A stretch of 64,000 nucleotides of DNA from a phage: the sequence record NC_104726.1; one strand, written 5' to 3'. Shown piece after piece: positions 29,920-37,550 of the stretch; the stretch's first letter is position 1, and every line of letters starts with the position of its first letter. The translations under genes and the position numbers were made by a program. The notes below the pieces were generated by a model. That model did no database searches, was not told the origin of the DNA, and was given only the letters and a program-made list of their open reading frames with translations.

Positions 29920-29996
29920 TGGTCTCCACGGAGTGATTCGAACACTCGACCTCCTGATCCCAAATCAGGCGCTCTACCAAGCTGAGCTACGCGGAG
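29920..29996 (-). tRNA. tRNA-Pro (anticodon UGG)
   Basis: manual fold: acceptor CTCCGCG/CGTGGAG, D arm GCTC..GAGC, anticodon loop TTTGGGA, T loop TTCGAAT, encoded CCA. Confidence 0.75.
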
Positions 29997-30007
29997 TATT
30001 TACTATT

Positions 30008-30082
30008 TGGTGGCCCTGGGTGGAATTGAACCACCGTCTGGCGATTATGAGTCGCTTGCTTGAACCTTCCAGCTACAGGGCC
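30008..30082 (-). tRNA. tRNA-Met (anticodon CAU; Met/Ile2 type undetermined)
   Basis: manual fold: acceptor GGCCCTG/CAGGGCC, anticodon loop CTCATAA, T arm GGTGG-TTCAATT-CCACC, encoded CCA. Confidence 0.7.
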
Positions 30083-30083
30083 T

Positions 30084-30159
30084 TGGTGCTGATGGCAGGA
30101 CTTTAACCTACAACCTATTGATTACAAATCAATTGCACTACCGATTTTGCTACATCAGC
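30084..30159 (-). tRNA. tRNA-Thr (anticodon UGU)
   Basis: manual fold: acceptor GCTGATG/CATCAGC, anticodon arm ATTGA-TTTGTAA-TCAAT, encoded CCA. Confidence 0.7.
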
Positions 30160-30164
30160 AAAAA

Positions 30165-30263
30165 GGTGCTAGGTGATGGAATCGAACCACCTATGTATTC
30201 AACGACTACCTCGTCTATTTTCAGGATTAAAAATCCTCGCCCTTGCCAAAGGGCTTACCTAGC
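30165..30263 (-). tRNA. atypical tRNA-Lys (anticodon UUU) with ~29-nt extra hairpin in variable region
   Basis: acceptor GCTAGGT/ACCTAGC, D arm GCCC-TTTGGCAA-GGGC, anticodon arm AGGA-TTTTTAA-TCCT, T arm GGTGG-TTCGATT-CCATC; 99 nt, extra segment AAAATAGACGAGGTAGTCGTTGAATACAT between anticodon and T arms. Confidence 0.5.
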
Positions 30264-30361
30264 TCAGTATGTTGACCATGTTGCTAGTCGGCGATGACGA
30301 CTGTAACATTTGATAATCCGGTTCTGCTTCCGACTTTCGCTTAATTACAAGGTCAACAATG

Positions 30362-30452
30362 TGGCGGAGAGTAATGGAATCGAACCATCATCGAGTCATC
30401 CTCAACGGGACGGTTTTCAAGACCGCTTGAGCACCATTGCTCCCTACCCTCC
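30362..30452 (-). tRNA. tRNA-Ser (anticodon UGA), type II
   Basis: acceptor GGAGGGT/ACTCTCC, anticodon arm GCGGT-CTTGAAA-ACCGT, long variable arm, encoded CCA. Confidence 0.7.
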
Positions 30453-30566
30453 TTTATAAATAATACTGATAATGACACTGATTTTCGAGCAGTTAGTGAC
30501 TAGTATAAACGACGATAAATATCAATGCCATTATCTGTATTATTTATGCATCTAAAAATATAAATT

Positions 30567-30653
30567 TGGTGGGGAGTGGTGGAGTCGAACCACCCGAGTC
30601 GCAATGACAATAGATTTACAGTCTACACCGCTACCTCTACGGGATAACTCCCC
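30567..30653 (-). tRNA. tRNA-Tyr (anticodon GUA), type II
   Basis: acceptor GGGGAGT/ACTCCCC, anticodon arm GTAGA-CTGTAAA-TCTAT, long variable arm, T arm GGTGG-TTCGACT-CCACC, encoded CCA. Confidence 0.65.
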
Positions 30654-30657
30654 AATT

Positions 30658-30732
30658 TGGCACCCCGTACTGGACTCGAACCAGTGTCAACGGCTTAGAA
30701 GGCCGCTGCTTTATCCACTAAGCTAACAGGGC
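30658..30732 (-). tRNA. tRNA-Arg (anticodon UCU)
   Basis: acceptor GCCCTGT/ACGGGGT (two G-U pairs), D arm GCTT..AAGC, anticodon arm GCGGC-CTTCTAA-GCCGT, encoded CCA. Confidence 0.65.
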
Positions 30733-32608: not shown

Positions 32609-33000
32609 AGCTGCCTCCTCTTCAAGTTATAGAAAAACTCACTGTATCGCTTTGTAACGAGCTTTTCTATCAAACTGGTGCGATTGCATTACCTGGTATA
32701 GTTTATATAGTTGTGGAGCGATTTAGGGGCCTTCTTGTCAGTTTCCACACATAAACTTCATCCAAGCTCGCGCGGGAGACTCTCAACCGACTCCTTACGG
32801 CGCTGGCAAGCTTTCGTCGGTGGTCCACATCAGTGCTCGGCCTTTGGCCTGCGCTATCGCTTCGCTCCCACACATGTTAACAGACCTGCATGTATGAACT
32901 TCTGTTATTGTGTGCACCAAGGAGGCCCGGCATCTCGCCCCTCGTAGGCGAGTGCCAATGAAGGGCCGACACTGCCCATAGTAAGTAATAAATTTAAAAC

Positions 33001-33070
33001 ATGGTACTTAGGATCTAGTATATTCTACATAAGTTAAGTATATGTACTTAGTACCATAAGTACTAGATCT
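33001..33070. repeat. AT-rich ~70-bp imperfect palindrome
   Basis: nested inverted repeats ATGGTACT/AGTACCAT and GGATCTAGTA/TACTAGATCT. Confidence 0.5.
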
Positions 33071-33110
33071 TTTATTTTTTATTATTTAGTTATTTTAGTT
33101 ATATTCTTTA

Positions 33111-33194
33111 TGTGTCCGTATCACGGACAGTTAGTGTCCGTATTACGGGCAGATGTGTCCGCGTGACGGACAGTAGTGTCCGTATCACGGACAG
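33111..33194. promoter_or_regulatory. array of four tandem 21-22-bp units each containing a 17-bp palindrome (operator/iteron-like)
   Basis: TGTCCGTATCACGGACA (33113-33129), TGTCCGTATTACGGGCA, TGTCCGCGTGACGGACA, TGTCCGTATCACGGACA (33177-33193); centre spacing 22/21/21 bp. Confidence 0.6.
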
Positions 33195-33268
33195 TTAATA
33201 GTATCCGTTCCATGGCGAACATAAAACATACGAATCCTTATAGTACAGATATTTAAGTTTTTACTGGT

Positions 33269-33619
33269 CTAACCAGTTGTTGACATCCGAATAACTTCTT
33301 CTGGTGGCAAAACTTTGGAAAATGTGCATCTTTTACCTCTCCCTTGTGTGGATGTTTCAACCACTCCTGCACATTCTAAAGTTTTAACGCACGCTGCTGC
33401 TTTTGTTTTCTTTATCCCAACATCTGCTGCAATTTTCCTTGTGCTTGGTGTGAAGCGTGAATTTCCTCCAAGCTTATACCAGTTGTGCAGGTAGCAGTAT
33501 ACGATCTTGTCATACAAGTCAAGAACAACAACCTCCCCAGTTGTGTCATTCAAAACTTTTGACATAGATAGTATTTCAAGGGGGACTTTAAGATATAGCA
33601 GCTTATCCCCATCTTTCAT
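33269..33619 (-). CDS. putative HTH DNA-binding protein
   Basis: 116 aa; segment TPSTRKIAADVGIKKTKAAACVKTLECAGVVE resembles a helix-turn-helix; gene ends 75 bp from palindromic site array. Confidence 0.35.
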   Translation of the reverse strand: MKDGDKLLYLKVPLEILSMSKVLNDTTGEVVVLDLYDKIVYCYLHNWYKLGGNSRFTPSTRKIAADVGIKKTKAAACVKTLECAGVVETSTQGRGKRCTFSKVLPPEEVIRMSTTG

Positions 33620-33666
33620 ATCTCCTGATTCTCCTTGTGTGGCAATTTTCTTTAAAATAGCAGGGA

Positions 33667-34221
33667 TTACTCCCTGCTGTCAATATCAAAACTCATTGCA
33701 ATACGGTATGCCTCTTCTAATTGTAAGAGTCTCCCCCACACATCCCAACCGACATCAAGCTGCCTGCCAAACAACTGTTGTGTGGTTCCGTGAGCATGAC
33801 CGAACAGTTGGACTGATCCGTGAGGCTTTCTGTTCCACTTTGCAAACTGGTAATGGCTCATACAGATCAAATTCTTGTTGTGGCGAAGCTCGTAATAATC
33901 TACAACCTCATGACCGAACTCTTTCATAATTCTGACAGTCGTCCTTGTGTCATGGTTGCCACGAACAAGAATAATATGTCCGTTCAACATATTTAGAATA
34001 TCTGGAAGTAAGTTGTTGATATTCTTATCATTAGTGCACGCAATATCTCCCAAGTGGAACACAGTGTCTGCAGGTGACACAACAGAGTTCCACTCGGCGA
34101 TGATTCCCGCATTCATACTGTCAAGATTGTGATCATACTGAGATCTGTGTTTTTGACATGAATCAAACTCCATGACCCGCTGGTGGAGAAAGTGTGTGTC
34201 GCTTGTTACAAAGTATTTCAT
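33667..34221 (-). CDS. calcineurin-like metallophosphoesterase (Pnkp-type phosphatase candidate)
   Basis: ORF 33667..34326 trimmed to MKYFVTSDTHF; motifs DxH (SDTHF), GDIA, GNHD, GHAHG. Confidence 0.6.
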   Translation of the reverse strand: MKYFVTSDTHFLHQRVMEFDSCQKHRSQYDHNLDSMNAGIIAEWNSVVSPADTVFHLGDIACTNDKNINNLLPDILNMLNGHIILVRGNHDTRTTVRIMKEFGHEVVDYYELRHNKNLICMSHYQFAKWNRKPHGSVQLFGHAHGTTQQLFGRQLDVGWDVWGRLLQLEEAYRIAMSFDIDSRE

Positions 34222-34228
34222 ACATTCC

Positions 34229-34639
34229 TCATTTAAGTTTAATGCAGTTTTTAAGCTGGCGTTCCATACGATCCACAACCTTGTCTGGAACATCATGAAT
34301 GCTTTTATTACCGTGGCGGTTTTCAACCACGATCACGGTATAACTATACCCATGAGTGATTGCCATGTCAACATATTCCTGCACATGTTTTTCTTTTGTA
34401 AACGTATTACTTACCACGATACGGTCGTATCCCATACGCATCATATCTTCTACGTTATCTTTGCACCATTTTGCTGCGAGTGTTACTTTACTTGCATCCC
34501 AGTTGTAATTGCCGTCATCGTCATACCAGAACATGTCGTTCTCAAAATGTGGATACAGACCCTCTAAAGATAGCGCATTTGCCAGTGTTGATTTGCCAGA
34601 CCCTGGTAGACCACGCACGATATATAGCATTTTAGACAT
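34229..34639 (-). CDS. P-loop polynucleotide-kinase-like protein
   Basis: trimmed to MSKMLYIVRGLPGSGKST (GGAGGG RBS); Walker A close to T4 Pnk GCPGSGKST; small single-domain kinase. Confidence 0.55.
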   Translation of the reverse strand: MSKMLYIVRGLPGSGKSTLANALSLEGLYPHFENDMFWYDDDGNYNWDASKVTLAAKWCKDNVEDMMRMGYDRIVVSNTFTKEKHVQEYVDMAITHGYSYTVIVVENRHGNKSIHDVPDKVVDRMERQLKNCIKLK

Positions 34640-34667
34640 AGCGACCCTCCGTTTTAATTTCAACGGT

Positions 34668-34696
34668 AGTATACCTAACTGTTTTGTTAATTTCAA
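34668..34696 (-). promoter_or_regulatory. sigma70-like promoter for kinase/phosphoesterase genes
   Basis: minus strand TTGAAA-17 nt-TATACT; back-to-back with plus-strand TTGACA at 34700. Confidence 0.45.
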
Positions 34697-34699
34697 GTG

Positions 34700-34730
34700 T
34701 TGACACTAAGTTATTTGTGTGGCAGGATAG
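34700..34730 (+). promoter_or_regulatory. candidate promoter for RNA ligase gene (weak -10)
   Basis: TTGACA at 34700-34705; downstream GGATAGACT as imperfect -10. Confidence 0.3.
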
Positions 34731-34739
34731 ACTGACAAA

Positions 34740-35675
34740 ATGACAAATGAGGAACATATAATGAAGTATTTTAATGCAGACGACCTAGTTGACAAAGGTC
34801 TTGCAACCAGTAGGTATTACCCAGATCTCGGGTTAAAGATCTATAAATATGCTAGAAAAGTATTTTACAACAATTTATGGCATTTGTCCCCTCGTTTACT
34901 GGAGTGCCGAGGCATTGTTGTAGGTAATGAAGGAAATGTTGTGGCATGGCCCTTCACAAAAGTGTTTAACTTGGGAGAAAACTCCACCAACCTGCCTGAC
35001 AATAAGCTTGTGACTGCGGTAGAGAAAAAGAACGGATTCCTTGGTGTGGTATCATCTCATAAAGGTGACCTATTGTTCTCAACAACCGGGTCTCTTGATT
35101 CTCCATATTGTAACCTTGCAAAGGAAACCATCCAAGAGCAATGTGGTAATTTAGATCTTATCAAGAAGGTTATGGGCAATGAAAACATGACATTCATGTT
35201 TGAAATTTGTCACCCTTCAGATCCGCATATTGTTCAAGAAGACCATGGCGCATATTTGATAGGTTGCAGATATAATGATTCTGGAATAATGCTACCAGAA
35301 GCAGCTTTAGATGGGATTGCCAAATACCTTGGTGCAAAACGTCCTAACACTGTGCGTGAAATTCCGTTCAGCTATGCAAAAGAATTAGCTGCAGAAACAA
35401 GAGGTGAAGGGTATATGATTCGTAAGCCTTACTACCCTTATGATCTGCAGCTGAAGATCAAGTCTCCATACTATCTGGCACGGAAGGCAGTAATGAGGGG
35501 TAAAGCTTGGAAGATTTGGGATGATGATATCTTTAAACGTGTTGACGAAGAGTTTTACGGTATGGTAAAATTTATTCGTAGCAACTATACAGAAGATGTG
35601 TGGAATTGCTTATTAGAGCAGGAGCGTCGTGAGATACTGGACTACTATTTCCACAACGAGGACTATATGCAATGA
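34740..35675 (+). CDS. rnlA: RNA ligase 1 (T4 RnlA-like)
   Basis: 311 aa; LLECRGIVV and VFNLGEN match T4 Rnl1 ALECRGIMF / FFNLNEN; nucleotidyltransferase motif I KKNG; motif V LKIKS. Confidence 0.7.
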   Translation: MTNEEHIMKYFNADDLVDKGLATSRYYPDLGLKIYKYARKVFYNNLWHLSPRLLECRGIVVGNEGNVVAWPFTKVFNLGENSTNLPDNKLVTAVEKKNGFLGVVSSHKGDLLFSTTGSLDSPYCNLAKETIQEQCGNLDLIKKVMGNENMTFMFEICHPSDPHIVQEDHGAYLIGCRYNDSGIMLPEAALDGIAKYLGAKRPNTVREIPFSYAKELAAETRGEGYMIRKPYYPYDLQLKIKSPYYLARKAVMRGKAWKIWDDDIFKRVDEEFYGMVKFIRSNYTEDVWNCLLEQERREILDYYFHNEDYMQ

Positions 35676-36022
35676 AGAAGTGGATTGTGTGGCTTGATGA
35701 TTTTAGAGATCCGTCAGATTATGGACTCCCAGACGCTCTGTGGCTAAAGAATTCTTCTGAGTTTATGGATTTTCTTAATGATAAGAGAAAGCTCTACAGA
35801 CGCGTATCTGAGTGGTATTTTGACAATGATCTAGGTGAAGTGCTTGAAGGGTACGACTGCTTCTCTGCGCTAGAGGAGAAACTTGTATTCGGAAAGCCAC
35901 CACTTATTGACAACGTGATTATTTTCGTGCATACTTCTAATCCATCGGCAGCTCGTAAATTTATGCTTGCTGCTGACTCATTCAAGAAGTTTGGAATAGA
36001 GATTAAACAAAACATCTACTGA
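35672..36022 (+). CDS. hypothetical protein, receiver-like alpha/beta fold suspected
   Basis: 116 aa; N-terminal MKKWIVWLDDFRDP resembles beta1-DD of CheY-like receiver; translationally coupled (ATGA) to RNA ligase. Confidence 0.3.
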   Translation: MKKWIVWLDDFRDPSDYGLPDALWLKNSSEFMDFLNDKRKLYRRVSEWYFDNDLGEVLEGYDCFSALEEKLVFGKPPLIDNVIIFVHTSNPSAARKFMLAADSFKKFGIEIKQNIY

Positions 36023-36030
36023 GGACACTT

Positions 36031-36792
36031 ATGCGACGACTGATTATTATCTCCGGTGCTGGTTTGAGCGCTGAATCTGGTATTCCCACTTTCCGATCTG
36101 GTAGCACTGCAATGTGGGAGAATTTCAGCATCGATGAGGTGTGCAACATCCACACCTTTGCCAAGAATTACTATAAGGTGCATGACTTTTACAATGCACG
36201 TCGTGTAGCTCTGGGCAGTGTTGATCCTAACCTTGCACATCTTCGGATCGCTGAGTGGTATTCCCGCTGGTCTGGTCGTGTGATCAACCTTACCACCAAT
36301 GTAGATGATTTGCTGGAGCGTGCTGGTGTAAAACATGAAGATATTTTACATGTCCACGGGTATTTGCCTGAAATCACCTACGAAGATGCTGAAGGTAATG
36401 ATGTAATTAAAAATATCGGATACACGGAGGTAGATACAGGCAAGTATACCTGGGTTAAGCCCAATGTAGTGTTATTCGGTGAGGTTGCTCCTAAGTATAC
36501 AGACATGTATGACCTGTTGACATCTCTCACAAGCAATGATATGGTGATCCTAGTAGGTTGTTCTAACACAGTTATTAATTTTAACTGGGAATTGTTTCCT
36601 GCTACTTGTAAAGGCACAAAACTGCTGATTGTAAACAAGTATGACTCGCAGAGTGCAGATGGAAGTGGCATTTCACGTAGCGACCTTTATCAATATGAGG
36701 ATCGCGGGATCCCTGTATGGTTTAACGGTGCTGTTGACGCTTTCTCTGATAAAGCATTTATTGAAACTGTAGAAAACTTTATGGAACTTTAA
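36031..36792 (+). CDS. Sir2-family NAD-dependent enzyme (sirtuin-like, no zinc ribbon)
   Basis: 253 aa; GAGLSAESGIPTFRSG, TTNVDDLLERAG, catalytic HVHG, VLFGE; lacks CxxC...CxxC zinc-binding module. Confidence 0.7.
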   Translation: MRRLIIISGAGLSAESGIPTFRSGSTAMWENFSIDEVCNIHTFAKNYYKVHDFYNARRVALGSVDPNLAHLRIAEWYSRWSGRVINLTTNVDDLLERAGVKHEDILHVHGYLPEITYEDAEGNDVIKNIGYTEVDTGKYTWVKPNVVLFGEVAPKYTDMYDLLTSLTSNDMVILVGCSNTVINFNWELFPATCKGTKLLIVNKYDSQSADGSGISRSDLYQYEDRGIPVWFNGAVDAFSDKAFIETVENFMEL

Positions 36793-36805
36793 AAGGAGAC
36801 CTTTA

Positions 36806-37519
36806 ATGCTGAATACTAAACTGATCGACAACCTGGAAAAACTGTCTCAGCCTGAAAACTACCTTTGGTCTGCCAACTGGGTGGAAAACTGGAACCGTGT
36901 GGCAGCTAAAGTGAAAAAATCATACACACCATTCGAATTACAGCTTAGCTTCATTGAGGAAGAGTTCAATGAGGTTTTGGAAGAGCTGGAGAAAGGTGAT
37001 GGTGGAGATCACCTGCTAAAAGAGGCCTGCGATCTTCACGTTGTCACAAGTTATGCCGCTTATCTTGTTAATGATAATCACGAAAAGTGGTCAAACCTGT
37101 TTGATAATCCACGAGGTCTTAAGTTCAAGATCGGTGAGTTCTATGATACACTGATCGCTGCGAAAAACACATCCAAGCAAAGAGCGTCAGCTTACCGCTT
37201 AGCGGAGTTGTCAACAGCTTTGCTGTTCCAGCTTCGCGGCGATGTGTGTGGGATGATGCGGAAGGTTCTCAAATCTAATGACAGCAAGTTTGCACGGATC
37301 AACCATCTACGATATTCTCACGGTGCCAGTGCAGATATGTCTACTGAATTGCTCATAGAGTTAGAGATTGAAGATCTTGAGCGTCGTTTTGGTGGTCGCT
37401 ACGAAGGTTTCGTTGCTAAAGAGGAGTTCTACAACGGTAATAAAGTTATTATATTCCTTGACAGTAAAGGTAAGATTATGAAGCCTTCGAGCTTCAAGGA
37501 TGTAACAGAGTATATTTAA
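36806..37519 (+). CDS. MazG-like nucleotide pyrophosphohydrolase domain protein
   Basis: 237 aa; N-terminal all-alpha segment with acidic EExxE-type motif (FIEEEFNEVLEELEK...LKEACDLHVV); C-terminal half unassigned. Confidence 0.4.
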   Translation: MLNTKLIDNLEKLSQPENYLWSANWVENWNRVAAKVKKSYTPFELQLSFIEEEFNEVLEELEKGDGGDHLLKEACDLHVVTSYAAYLVNDNHEKWSNLFDNPRGLKFKIGEFYDTLIAAKNTSKQRASAYRLAELSTALLFQLRGDVCGMMRKVLKSNDSKFARINHLRYSHGASADMSTELLIELEIEDLERRFGGRYEGFVAKEEFYNGNKVIIFLDSKGKIMKPSSFKDVTEYI

Positions 37520-37525
37520 CAACAT

Positions 37526-37550
37526 AGCCGGGATTACCCGGCTTTACTTA
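37526..37550 (+). terminator. rho-independent terminator after MazG-like gene
   Basis: hairpin GCCGGG-ATTA-CCCGGC followed by TTTACTTATT. Confidence 0.5.

Follow-up and report, generated by a model that had tools for sequence, protein, structure and literature searches.

A locus of six contiguous genes

The stretch of phage DNA analysed here (sequence record NC_104726.1, 64,000 nucleotides, referred to as the window) contains, at positions 33667–37519, six contiguous genes that encode a metallophosphoesterase (MPE), a P-loop kinase, an RNA ligase of the Rnl1 family, a cREC protein, a sirtuin (Sir2) and a MazG-like protein (Table 1). An initial annotation had described the first three as an RNA repair cassette. 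Their open reading frames (ORFs) are present, that of the ligase at 34740–35675, as are the motifs listed for them, GLPGSGKST in the kinase and SDTHF, GDIA, GNHD and GHAHG in the MPE. The trio is real, but the unit is larger, as the cREC, Sir2 and MazG-like genes co-transcribed with the ligase had been missed.

In a search of phage records, the region 33000–37000 was 99.8% identical to Escherichia phage isim and 97.7% identical to phage rV5, and the window is therefore assigned to Vequintavirus. The 4-kb region occurs at an identity of at least 90% in 118 of the 119 matching records. Between 18 and 23 records labelled as “Campylobacter phage” (e.g. C2, MG065655, host C. jejuni) are 90–98% identical to it, which looks like host mis-assignment or contamination.

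That these genes might repair RNA has been predicted before. Iyer, Burroughs, Anantharaman and Aravind 2022 (Viruses 14:1977, section 3.7.3, PMC9503650) described a sirtuin-centred RNA-repair neighbourhood of type 2, with Escherichia phage V5 and Proteus phage Mydo as prototypes, which comprises a T4-like tRNA ligase, cREC, a kinase, a sirtuin, MazG and a calcineurin-like phosphoesterase. This very locus is present in the window, which comes from a phage of the same genus, carries all six genes and is 97.7% identical to V5 over 4 kb. These authors predicted that 2',3'-cyclic phosphate ends are cleaned for ligation, with the sirtuin as an analogue of KptA. GenBank records also name the genes, as “RNA ligase 1 and tail attachment protein”, “putative phosphoesterase” and, in BASEL phages, “polynucleotide kinase”. 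The finding was therefore already known as a prediction. To this, the present study adds support for the kinase and the ligase from single residues and from folds, a corrected family assignment for the MPE, the recognition of the trio as a conserved core, and an association between ligases with a KxNG motif I and NAD-linked genes.

Table 1. Genes and other features of the locus, in window coordinates (aa, amino acids)
Feature	Position	Strand	Evidence
Metallophosphoesterase (MPE), 184 aa, candidate 3'-end healing enzyme (2',3'-cyclic phosphodiesterase/phosphatase)	33667–34221	−	Pfam Metallophos_2/Metallophos, phrog_547
Stand-alone P-loop kinase, 136 aa, candidate polynucleotide 5'-OH kinase	34229–34639	−	AAA_33, phrog_2071, phrog_505; P-loop residues 10–18, Asp35
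Divergent control region with promoter-like hexamers	34640–34760		Promoter scan, sequence, comparison with locus L090
Rnl1-family RNA ligase, 304 aa	34761–35675 (ORF opens at 34740)	+	PF09511; AMP-lysine K89, motif I KKNG; motif IV EG 216–217; motif V K232/K234
cREC, 116 aa, predicted metal-independent cyclic-phosphate phosphoesterase	35672–36022	+	PF20274 cREC_REC 9e-14, 52 bits vs cut-off 27; phrog_1479
Divergent sirtuin, 253 aa, proposed KptA/Tpt1-like 2'-phosphate remover	36031–36792	+	PF02146 2e-27; phrog_2162
MazG-like nucleotide pyrophosphohydrolase, 237 aa, last gene of the operon	36806–37519	+	phrog_671 6e-22, no Pfam match
GC-rich hairpin AGCCGGG-ATTA-CCCGGCT right after the MazG-like stop	37526–37543		Terminator-like scan, both strands

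Conserved linkage of ligase, kinase and MPE

The strongest evidence for a cassette is conserved synteny. The ligase alone was matched in 756 of 50,697 phage records. For the census, 80 loci fetched with the ligase profile were pooled with the ligase-bearing loci of a kinase search, which gave 44 non-redundant loci with a ligase of the KxNG type. Within 10 kb of the ligase, a kinase gene is found in 39 of these loci and an MPE gene likewise in 39. In 32 of the 44, both genes flank the ligase at no more than 2.5 kb and share its strand, the order being MPE-ligase-kinase in 23 and the reverse in nine. Sir2, cREC and MazG-like genes lie within 10 kb in just seven, six and eight loci, respectively, so that the trio is the constant core and these three are add-ons. 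The published description has this the other way round: there the sirtuin is central, and the phosphoesterase is called “occasional”.

In some phages the trio genes overlap, as in Aeromonas phage 2L372X (genes 150–152), and Pseudomonas phage PAK_P1 is another named example. Carriers of the trio include Vequintavirus, Phapecoctavirus and Pakpunavirus as well as Vibrio, Aeromonas and Acinetobacter phages. This linkage cannot be due to chance, as pattern scans of 2.9 million viral contigs confirmed these families in no more than hundreds of them. The divergent arrangement, to which the initial annotation had drawn attention, is true of the window but is a peculiarity of the genus (1 of the 44 ligase loci), most relatives having MPE, ligase and kinase on one strand. 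Three or four Klebsiella-phage-like genomes show a further variant, ligase-cREC-kinase-Sir2-DNA ligase...MazG on one strand, where the kinase sits between cREC and Sir2 within the ligase operon.

Linkage of the trio is kept in the 12 loci of a second ligase subfamily, with proteins of about 350 aa and the canonical KxDG motif. None of these has NAD-related genes nearby, which ties the kinase and the MPE to the ligase and not to NAD metabolism. A kinase-anchored census (80 viral-contig loci found with the kinase profile plus five loci from look-ups of encoding contigs, 48 after removal of redundancy) gave an MPE within 10 kb in 34 loci and an Rnl1-type ligase in 20. The presence of the genes and their linkage are thus matters of observation, as are the family placements and the intact catalytic residues described below.

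The kinase resembles polynucleotide kinases

The kinase matches AAA_33 (9e-11), phrog_2071 (1e-57) and, more weakly, phrog_505, annotated as “polynucleotide kinase”. Its family is very large (more than 7,990 homologues) and consists of proteins of about 130 aa that stand alone. In 38 kinase sequences the P-loop (G10–T18) and D35 are invariant, as are N78-T79 and an ENRH motif. The likeness of the P-loop to that of T4 polynucleotide kinase (Pnk), pointed out in the initial annotation, is evident from the N-terminus of the T4 enzyme Pnkp (MKKIILTIGCPGSGKST). In a profile alignment with T4 Pnkp (hhalign, 95.7% probability) D35 falls on the catalytic general base of that enzyme, also D35.

Single-sequence phmmer searches of the PDB were uninformative for both kinase and ligase, and family profiles were used instead. 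For the kinase, the top matches included the Mucorales RNA 5'-OH kinase, a stand-alone enzyme of tRNA splicing (PMC11571804), Capnocytophaga Pnkp1, PSTK, T4 Pnk and Clostridium thermocellum Pnk (CthPnk), together with one chain of adenylate kinase 9. An AlphaFold2 model (predicted local distance difference test, pLDDT, 89) was compared with known structures by Foldseek, giving template modelling (TM) scores of 0.76–0.79 for CthPnk, 0.72–0.75 for T4 Pnk, 0.70–0.75 for PSTK and 0.59–0.68 for mammalian PNKP; gluconokinase and the adenosine phosphosulfate (APS), UMP-CMP and adenylate kinases scored 0.49–0.60. The modelled fold is thus closest to polynucleotide kinases and not to nucleoside monophosphate or metabolite kinases. 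Both profile and fold comparisons therefore uphold, in silico, the assignment to the Pnk type made in the initial annotation.

The ligase belongs to the Rnl1 family

For the ligase, matches to PF09511 (RNA_lig_T4_1; 1e-14, 55.4 bits against a cut-off of 28.3) and phrog_562 (3e-65) were found, and BLASTP aligned its N-terminal 180 residues with T4 Rnl1 at 26% identity (E 9e-10). When the two phage subfamilies and T4 Rnl1 are aligned, the equivalents of T4 R54, K75, F77, K99, G102, E159, E227, G228, K240 and K242 are invariant. R50, K67 and F69 of the window ligase (numbered for the 304-aa protein) correspond to the first three, and the catalytic positions in K89-K-N-G, E148, E216-G217 and K232/K234 are likewise invariant across both subfamilies and T4 Rnl1. 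With the family profile, the sole match in the PDB was T4 Rnl1 (2e-12), and no match to Trl1 was obtained at the sequence level. These data support, in silico, the membership in the Rnl1 family proposed initially, the essential residues of T4 Rnl1 being kept except at the K119 position.

The ligase is not a close copy of the T4 enzyme. Its score for the T4 RnlA equivalog TIGR02308 (NCBIfam) is 38.4, far below the cut-off of 242, its C-terminus is about 70 aa shorter (304 vs 374 aa) and cannot be aligned beyond motif V, and throughout its subfamily motif I is KxNG, compared with KEDG in T4. KxNG is the motif I of the Trl1 type and also of the Mucorales RNL (PMC10946426). With an AlphaFold2 model of the ligase (pLDDT 93), Foldseek gave a tie between the ligase domain of fungal Trl1 and T4 Rnl1 (E about 1e-12, TM score about 0.62). 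In Trl1, two arginines of the C-terminal domain, Arg334 and Arg337, determine the preference for 2'-phosphate ends, which are not sealed by T4 Rnl1 (PMC12440814). With a Trl1-type motif I, no equivalent of T4 K119 and a predicted fold tied between both, the ligase may act in a Trl1-like or in a T4-like route.

The metallophosphoesterase is not of the Pnkp family

The MPE matches PF12850/PF00149 at about 1e-6 and phrog_547 at 4e-51, and the five metallophosphoesterase motifs (DxH, GD, GNH, H and GHxH) are invariant in the family, at D8/H10, G58-D59, G88-N89-H90, H123 and G141-H142-x-H144. When its family profile was compared with all PDB sequences, Aquifex aq_1665 (1xm7) was closest (8e-18), followed by 6unc, GpdQ, YfcE and Rv0805. 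Lambda phosphatase and the phosphatase of C. thermocellum Pnkp (CthPnkp) were not matched at E<1 in this search, in agreement with a single-sequence search. The enzyme had initially been called calcineurin-type “as in bacterial Pnkp”; because neither of these phosphatases was matched, this is true of the superfamily only, and the family is another one. The profile comparisons that the initial annotation had suggested as a check thus lead to polynucleotide 5'-kinases for the kinase, to T4 Rnl1 for the ligase and to aq_1665 for the MPE. No phosphatase domain of the HAD type used by T4 was found in any of the fetched loci.

The C-terminus of the window MPE (33667–33690) reads ...FDIDSRE, where the proteins of the family mostly terminate in a conserved DHH motif and close relatives have DHH, IHH or DHGE. 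Loss of the DHH motif may be specific to this lineage, and the motif may provide an extra metal or substrate ligand.

The ligase operon and its control region

The ligase heads an operon with the cREC, the zinc-less sirtuin and the MazG-like protein. The cREC start overlaps the ligase stop (ATGA), the sirtuin gene follows 8 nt on and the MazG-like gene 13 nt further. The role of cREC was first proposed in a 2021 paper on jumbo phages by the same group (PMC7824862) and taken up again in the 2022 survey (PMC9503650). In an alignment with E. coli CobB (1s5p), to which it is closest, the sirtuin keeps the NAD+ pocket (GAGxSxESGIxTFR) and the catalytic His (HxHG), while its zinc module contains no Cys, the cysteines of the zinc ribbon having been lost. 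It scores below every NCBIfam cut-off. A defence-type Sir2 was considered and rejected, as no PADLOC defence model matched it. The MazG-like gene co-occurs with Sir2 in related loci, and MazG is named in the published neighbourhood (PMC9503650).

The gap between kinase and ligase contains promoter-like hexamers on both strands, their −35 hexamers back to back and 3 bp apart. That on the minus strand (TTGAAA-17-TATACT, 34696–34668) has 10 of 12 matches to the consensus, and the kinase has the Shine-Dalgarno (SD) sequence GGAGGG. On the plus strand, a perfect TTGACA (34700–34705) and a weak −10 hexamer, CAGGAT (34723–34728), are separated by 17 nt, the last three of which, TGG, form a TGn element. 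The TTGAC and TGTGTGG blocks of the plus strand are kept in locus L090, a relative with diverged flanks. Back-to-back promoters had been proposed here in the initial annotation: the hexamers are where they were claimed to be, but the −10 hexamer of the plus strand is weak and our scan did not call this site. No promoter is annotated in the kinase-ligase gap of the rV5 record. A promoter function of these hexamers is plausible. For the ligase, the ATG at 34761 is most likely the start, and not that at 34740, as the former has an SD sequence, GAGGAA (34749–34754), and is kept in L090 while the latter is not.

Upstream of the MPE, within the kinase gene, is the strongest promoter-like site of the region (34343–34371, minus strand; TTGACA-17-TATAGT, 11 of 12), which is labelled as sigma-70 promoter P80 in the rV5 record. 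By means of this promoter-like site, the MPE may also be transcribed alone.

NAD-linked neighbours of KxNG ligases

An NAD-linked gene, defined here as Sir2, cREC, or a pair of PRPP-synthetase-like and NAMPT-like genes with or without a Macro protein, occurs within 10 kb in 32 of the 44 loci with a KxNG ligase and in none of the 12 with a KxDG ligase (Fisher p = 5e-6, uncorrected for relatedness). The NAMPT-like gene alone accounts for 28 of 44 vs 0 of 12. Loci where the trio stands beside the PRPP-synthetase-like and NAMPT-like genes, often with Macro, are L004, L005, L091–L123 and L170 (Pseudomonas phage PAK_P1).

The pair, together with Macro where present, most likely represents NARP1 and NARP1-AP, an experimentally validated anti-defence pathway that rebuilds NAD+ and whose Macro enzyme is a Poa1p-like ADP-ribose-1''-phosphatase (Osterman et al. 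2026). The “phage phosphatases” of that study were considered as the MPE family and rejected, as they are Macro-domain proteins. The association of KxNG ligases with NAD-linked genes may reflect a shared anti-defence island, or the use of NAD+ by a repair route that removes 2'-phosphates.

Proposed function

We consider it probable that the cassette is a phage module for RNA repair by healing and sealing, and we infer the enzymatic activities, their substrates and the choice of end chemistry from the families and residues described above. The kinase would phosphorylate the 5'-OH of a broken RNA, and the MPE, the cREC or both would open or remove the 2',3'-cyclic phosphate of the opposite end, upon which the ligase would join the ends via a lysine-AMP intermediate at K89. 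Likely substrates would be tRNAs, of the host or encoded by the phage, with the anticodon loop cut by host defence nucleases. The cREC, the zinc-less sirtuin and the MazG-like protein most likely would add an NAD+-dependent handling of a 2'-phosphate or of the ADP-ribose by-products arising from it. The initial annotation had proposed a kit of separate polypeptides for end healing and sealing, and this agrees with the in silico data and with the tight linkage of the three genes across many unrelated phages; the T4-like chemistry with 3'-OH,2'-OH ends was an assumption.

Nucleases that cut tRNAs are now recognised as a common anti-phage weapon of bacteria, and encoding tRNAs and repairing them are complementary answers to such defences. 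We count as support a cluster of seven tRNA genes about 3 kb from the cassette (29920–30732, minus strand), with Pro-UGG, Met/Ile-CAU, Thr-UGU, a Lys-like gene, Ser-UGA, Tyr-GUA and Arg-UCU. The place of the kinase inside the ligase operon of the Klebsiella-phage-like genomes and the independent prediction for phage V5 (PMC9503650) speak for the module as well.

The Lys-like gene of this cluster (97 nt, 30167–30263, minus strand) is unusual. ARAGORN left it untyped (“anticodon atcc”), and it reaches 35.5 bits with the Rfam tRNA model, for which the gathering threshold is 29. By eye, the loop reads UUUUUAA with anticodon UUU (Lys), and the variable arm is very long. The gene is listed as tRNA-Lys in the BASEL record and is absent from the rV5 annotation. 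As tRNA-Lys(UUU) is the classic target of PrrC, this odd copy, 4 kb from the cassette, may be a decoy-proof substitute.

Several observations weigh against a function in RNA repair. The position of T4 Rnl1 K119, a residue reportedly found by Wang, Ho and Shuman in 2003 to be essential for RNA adenylylation, is occupied by Thr (STTGS), and this Thr is constant in the subfamily of the window ligase. In the kinase, hhalign revealed no clear equivalent of the acceptor-binding T4 Arg38, a residue located in an insertion that was left unaligned. R108, invariant in the family (ENRHG), is aligned to T4 R122, near the lid arginine R126, in a loop where the alignment is uncertain. The closest solved relative of the MPE, aq_1665, is uncharacterised, the MPE stands outside the Pnkp/lambda-phosphatase family, and in the window its C-terminus is without the DHH motif found in nearly all members of its family. 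In 17 of the 48 kinase loci an MPE occurs with no Rnl1-type ligase within 10 kb, so a kinase-MPE pair also exists without a nearby ligase. An ATP-dependent DNA ligase gene within 10 kb of half of the ligase loci leaves room for a role in DNA metabolism. Finally, the literature searched contained no biochemical or genetic data on these proteins, only predictions for the rV5-like ligase, kinase and Sir2 in the two surveys of the Aravind group.

Within the RNA repair reading, a fungal-style route made up of unrelated proteins has to be considered, in which cREC or MPE would open the 2',3'-cyclic phosphate to 3'-OH,2'-PO4 ends, the KxNG ligase would seal them, the sirtuin would be a non-homologous substitute for Tpt1/KptA, using NAD+ to remove the 2'-phosphate from the junction, and the MazG-like protein would clear the ADP-ribose product. 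This idea goes back to Iyer et al. 2022 (PMC9503650), and the sole support added here is the contrast in NAD-linked genes between KxNG and KxDG loci, with NARP1, accompanied or not by Macro/Adpp, taking that place in KxNG phages that have no sirtuin. We regard this route as rather unlikely.

Alternative explanations

Each of the alternatives considered explains less than RNA repair does. The trio is linked even where neither a DNA ligase nor an NAD-linked gene is nearby. The first would make the region an anti-defence island directed at small molecules, with kinase, MPE, cREC, Sir2 and MazG acting on derivatives of NAD+ or ADP-ribose or on nucleotide immune signals (cyclic ADP-ribose, 2',3'-cyclic nucleoside monophosphates, ADP-ribose-1''-phosphate) and the ligase merely co-resident. 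It would account for the NAD-linked neighbours of the KxNG ligases, among them the NARP1 pair (Adps-like and Namat-like) and the Macro protein, and it agrees with the 2022 survey, which terms the kinase a “nucleotide kinase” and places the cluster in an NAD+-ADP-ribose network (PMC9503650). The MPE relatives GpdQ, YfcE and Rv0805 are also phosphodiesterases that act on small substrates. However, in its modelled fold and its catalytic Asp the kinase is nearer to polynucleotide kinases than to kinases of nucleotides or metabolites, and the trio persists in every lineage without an NAD-linked neighbour, i.e. in all 12 KxDG loci. Neither a NARP1 nor a Macro gene was found in the window, and NARP1-AP is self-sufficient with three genes, requiring no kinase or MPE. 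We therefore think this explanation quite improbable.

A function in the repair of DNA ends is very unlikely in our opinion. Here, kinase and MPE would be a split PNKP that feeds the ATP-dependent DNA ligase of the phage (38146–39429), either while the phage replicates or once host nucleases have attacked its DNA, and the RNA ligase would have a secondary part or none. The DNA ligase gene of the window lies only 2.5 kb downstream, one is present within 10 kb in 22 of the 44 KxNG loci, and in the Klebsiella-phage-like relatives it is inside the cluster. DNA is also a substrate of T4 Pnkp and of the Mucorales kinase (PMC11571804), and the MPE has a weak similarity (E 3e-4, far under the cut-off) to the ligase-associated PdeM. 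Yet the immediate and often overlapping neighbour of kinase and MPE is an RNA ligase, not a DNA ligase; no DNA ligase is near any of the 12 KxDG loci, where the trio is kept, and none was found at the loci that have only kinase and MPE.

It is extremely unlikely that the ligase homologue is mainly a tail-fibre attachment factor with unrelated enzymes at its flanks, a notion that stems from the many records annotated “RNA ligase 1 and tail attachment protein” and from the second activity of T4 Rnl1 (gp63; note in the T4 record), as the name was transferred purely by homology, the catalytic residues are strictly conserved, the C-terminal region differs from that of T4, the gene stands among genes of the early nucleotide-metabolism type and not among tail genes, and the linkage to kinase and MPE would be left unexplained.

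Relation to known repair systems

The system proposed here is reminiscent of T4 Pnkp and Rnl1, which counter PrrC and are, to our knowledge, the only phage answer by repair that has been studied in depth. Both are phage-encoded and share the ligase family and a kinase P-loop with a catalytic Asp. They differ in that the 3'-end healer of the window would be a binuclear metallophosphoesterase unfused to the kinase, whereas that of T4 is an enzyme of the HAD type (DxDxT), and in that cREC, Sir2 and MazG have no T4 counterpart.

With the bacterial Pnkp-Hen1 and Pnkp1-Rnl-Hen1 systems (Clostridium thermocellum, Capnocytophaga) the window shares the kinase fold, CthPnk being the best structural and Pnkp1 a profile match, and a metallophosphoesterase as the presumed 3'-end healer. 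The MPE is of another family, however, no Hen1 methyltransferase is present, the ligase is of the Rnl1 type and not the C-terminal ligase domain of Pnkp, and the proteins are small separate polypeptides.

Fungal and plant Trl1, which joins ligase, kinase and cyclic phosphodiesterase in one protein and works together with Tpt1, resembles the window system in motif I of the ligase (KxNG), in a predicted fold as near as that of T4 Rnl1, and in the NAD+-using enzyme encoded beside the window ligase. In the split version of the Mucorales, kinase and ligase are also stand-alone proteins (PMC11571804, PMC10946426). Unlike these systems, the operon contains no 2H cyclic phosphodiesterase and no Tpt1/KptA among the genes found in it (the window as a whole was not scanned for these), and cREC and the sirtuin are the predicted substitutes. 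The published survey of the neighbourhood itself includes no residue-level or structural analysis of kinase, ligase or MPE.

As the hypothesis is not new, its remaining value is experimental. If RNA repair is indeed the function, the trio would represent a second and more widespread repair solution that affects the host range of phages relevant to therapy. Removal of 2'-phosphates from RNA by the sirtuin, if true, would be a new activity for the sirtuin superfamily.

Other features of the region

Directly downstream of the MPE, a gene on the minus strand (33269–33619) encodes a helix-turn-helix protein (HTH_36/DUF6945) that matches phrog_12838, “replication initiation protein”, and is called a transcriptional regulator in GenBank. 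The hairpin that follows the MazG-like gene (Table 1) is weak evidence for a bidirectional terminator closing the operon, as such sites are no commoner in the region than in shuffled sequences. Where the divergent genes meet, at about 34000–34700, the GC skew changes sign and rises from roughly −0.12 to roughly +0.12. This switch coincides with the switch of the coding strand in the whole 64-kb window, and it may mark a replication-related boundary as well.

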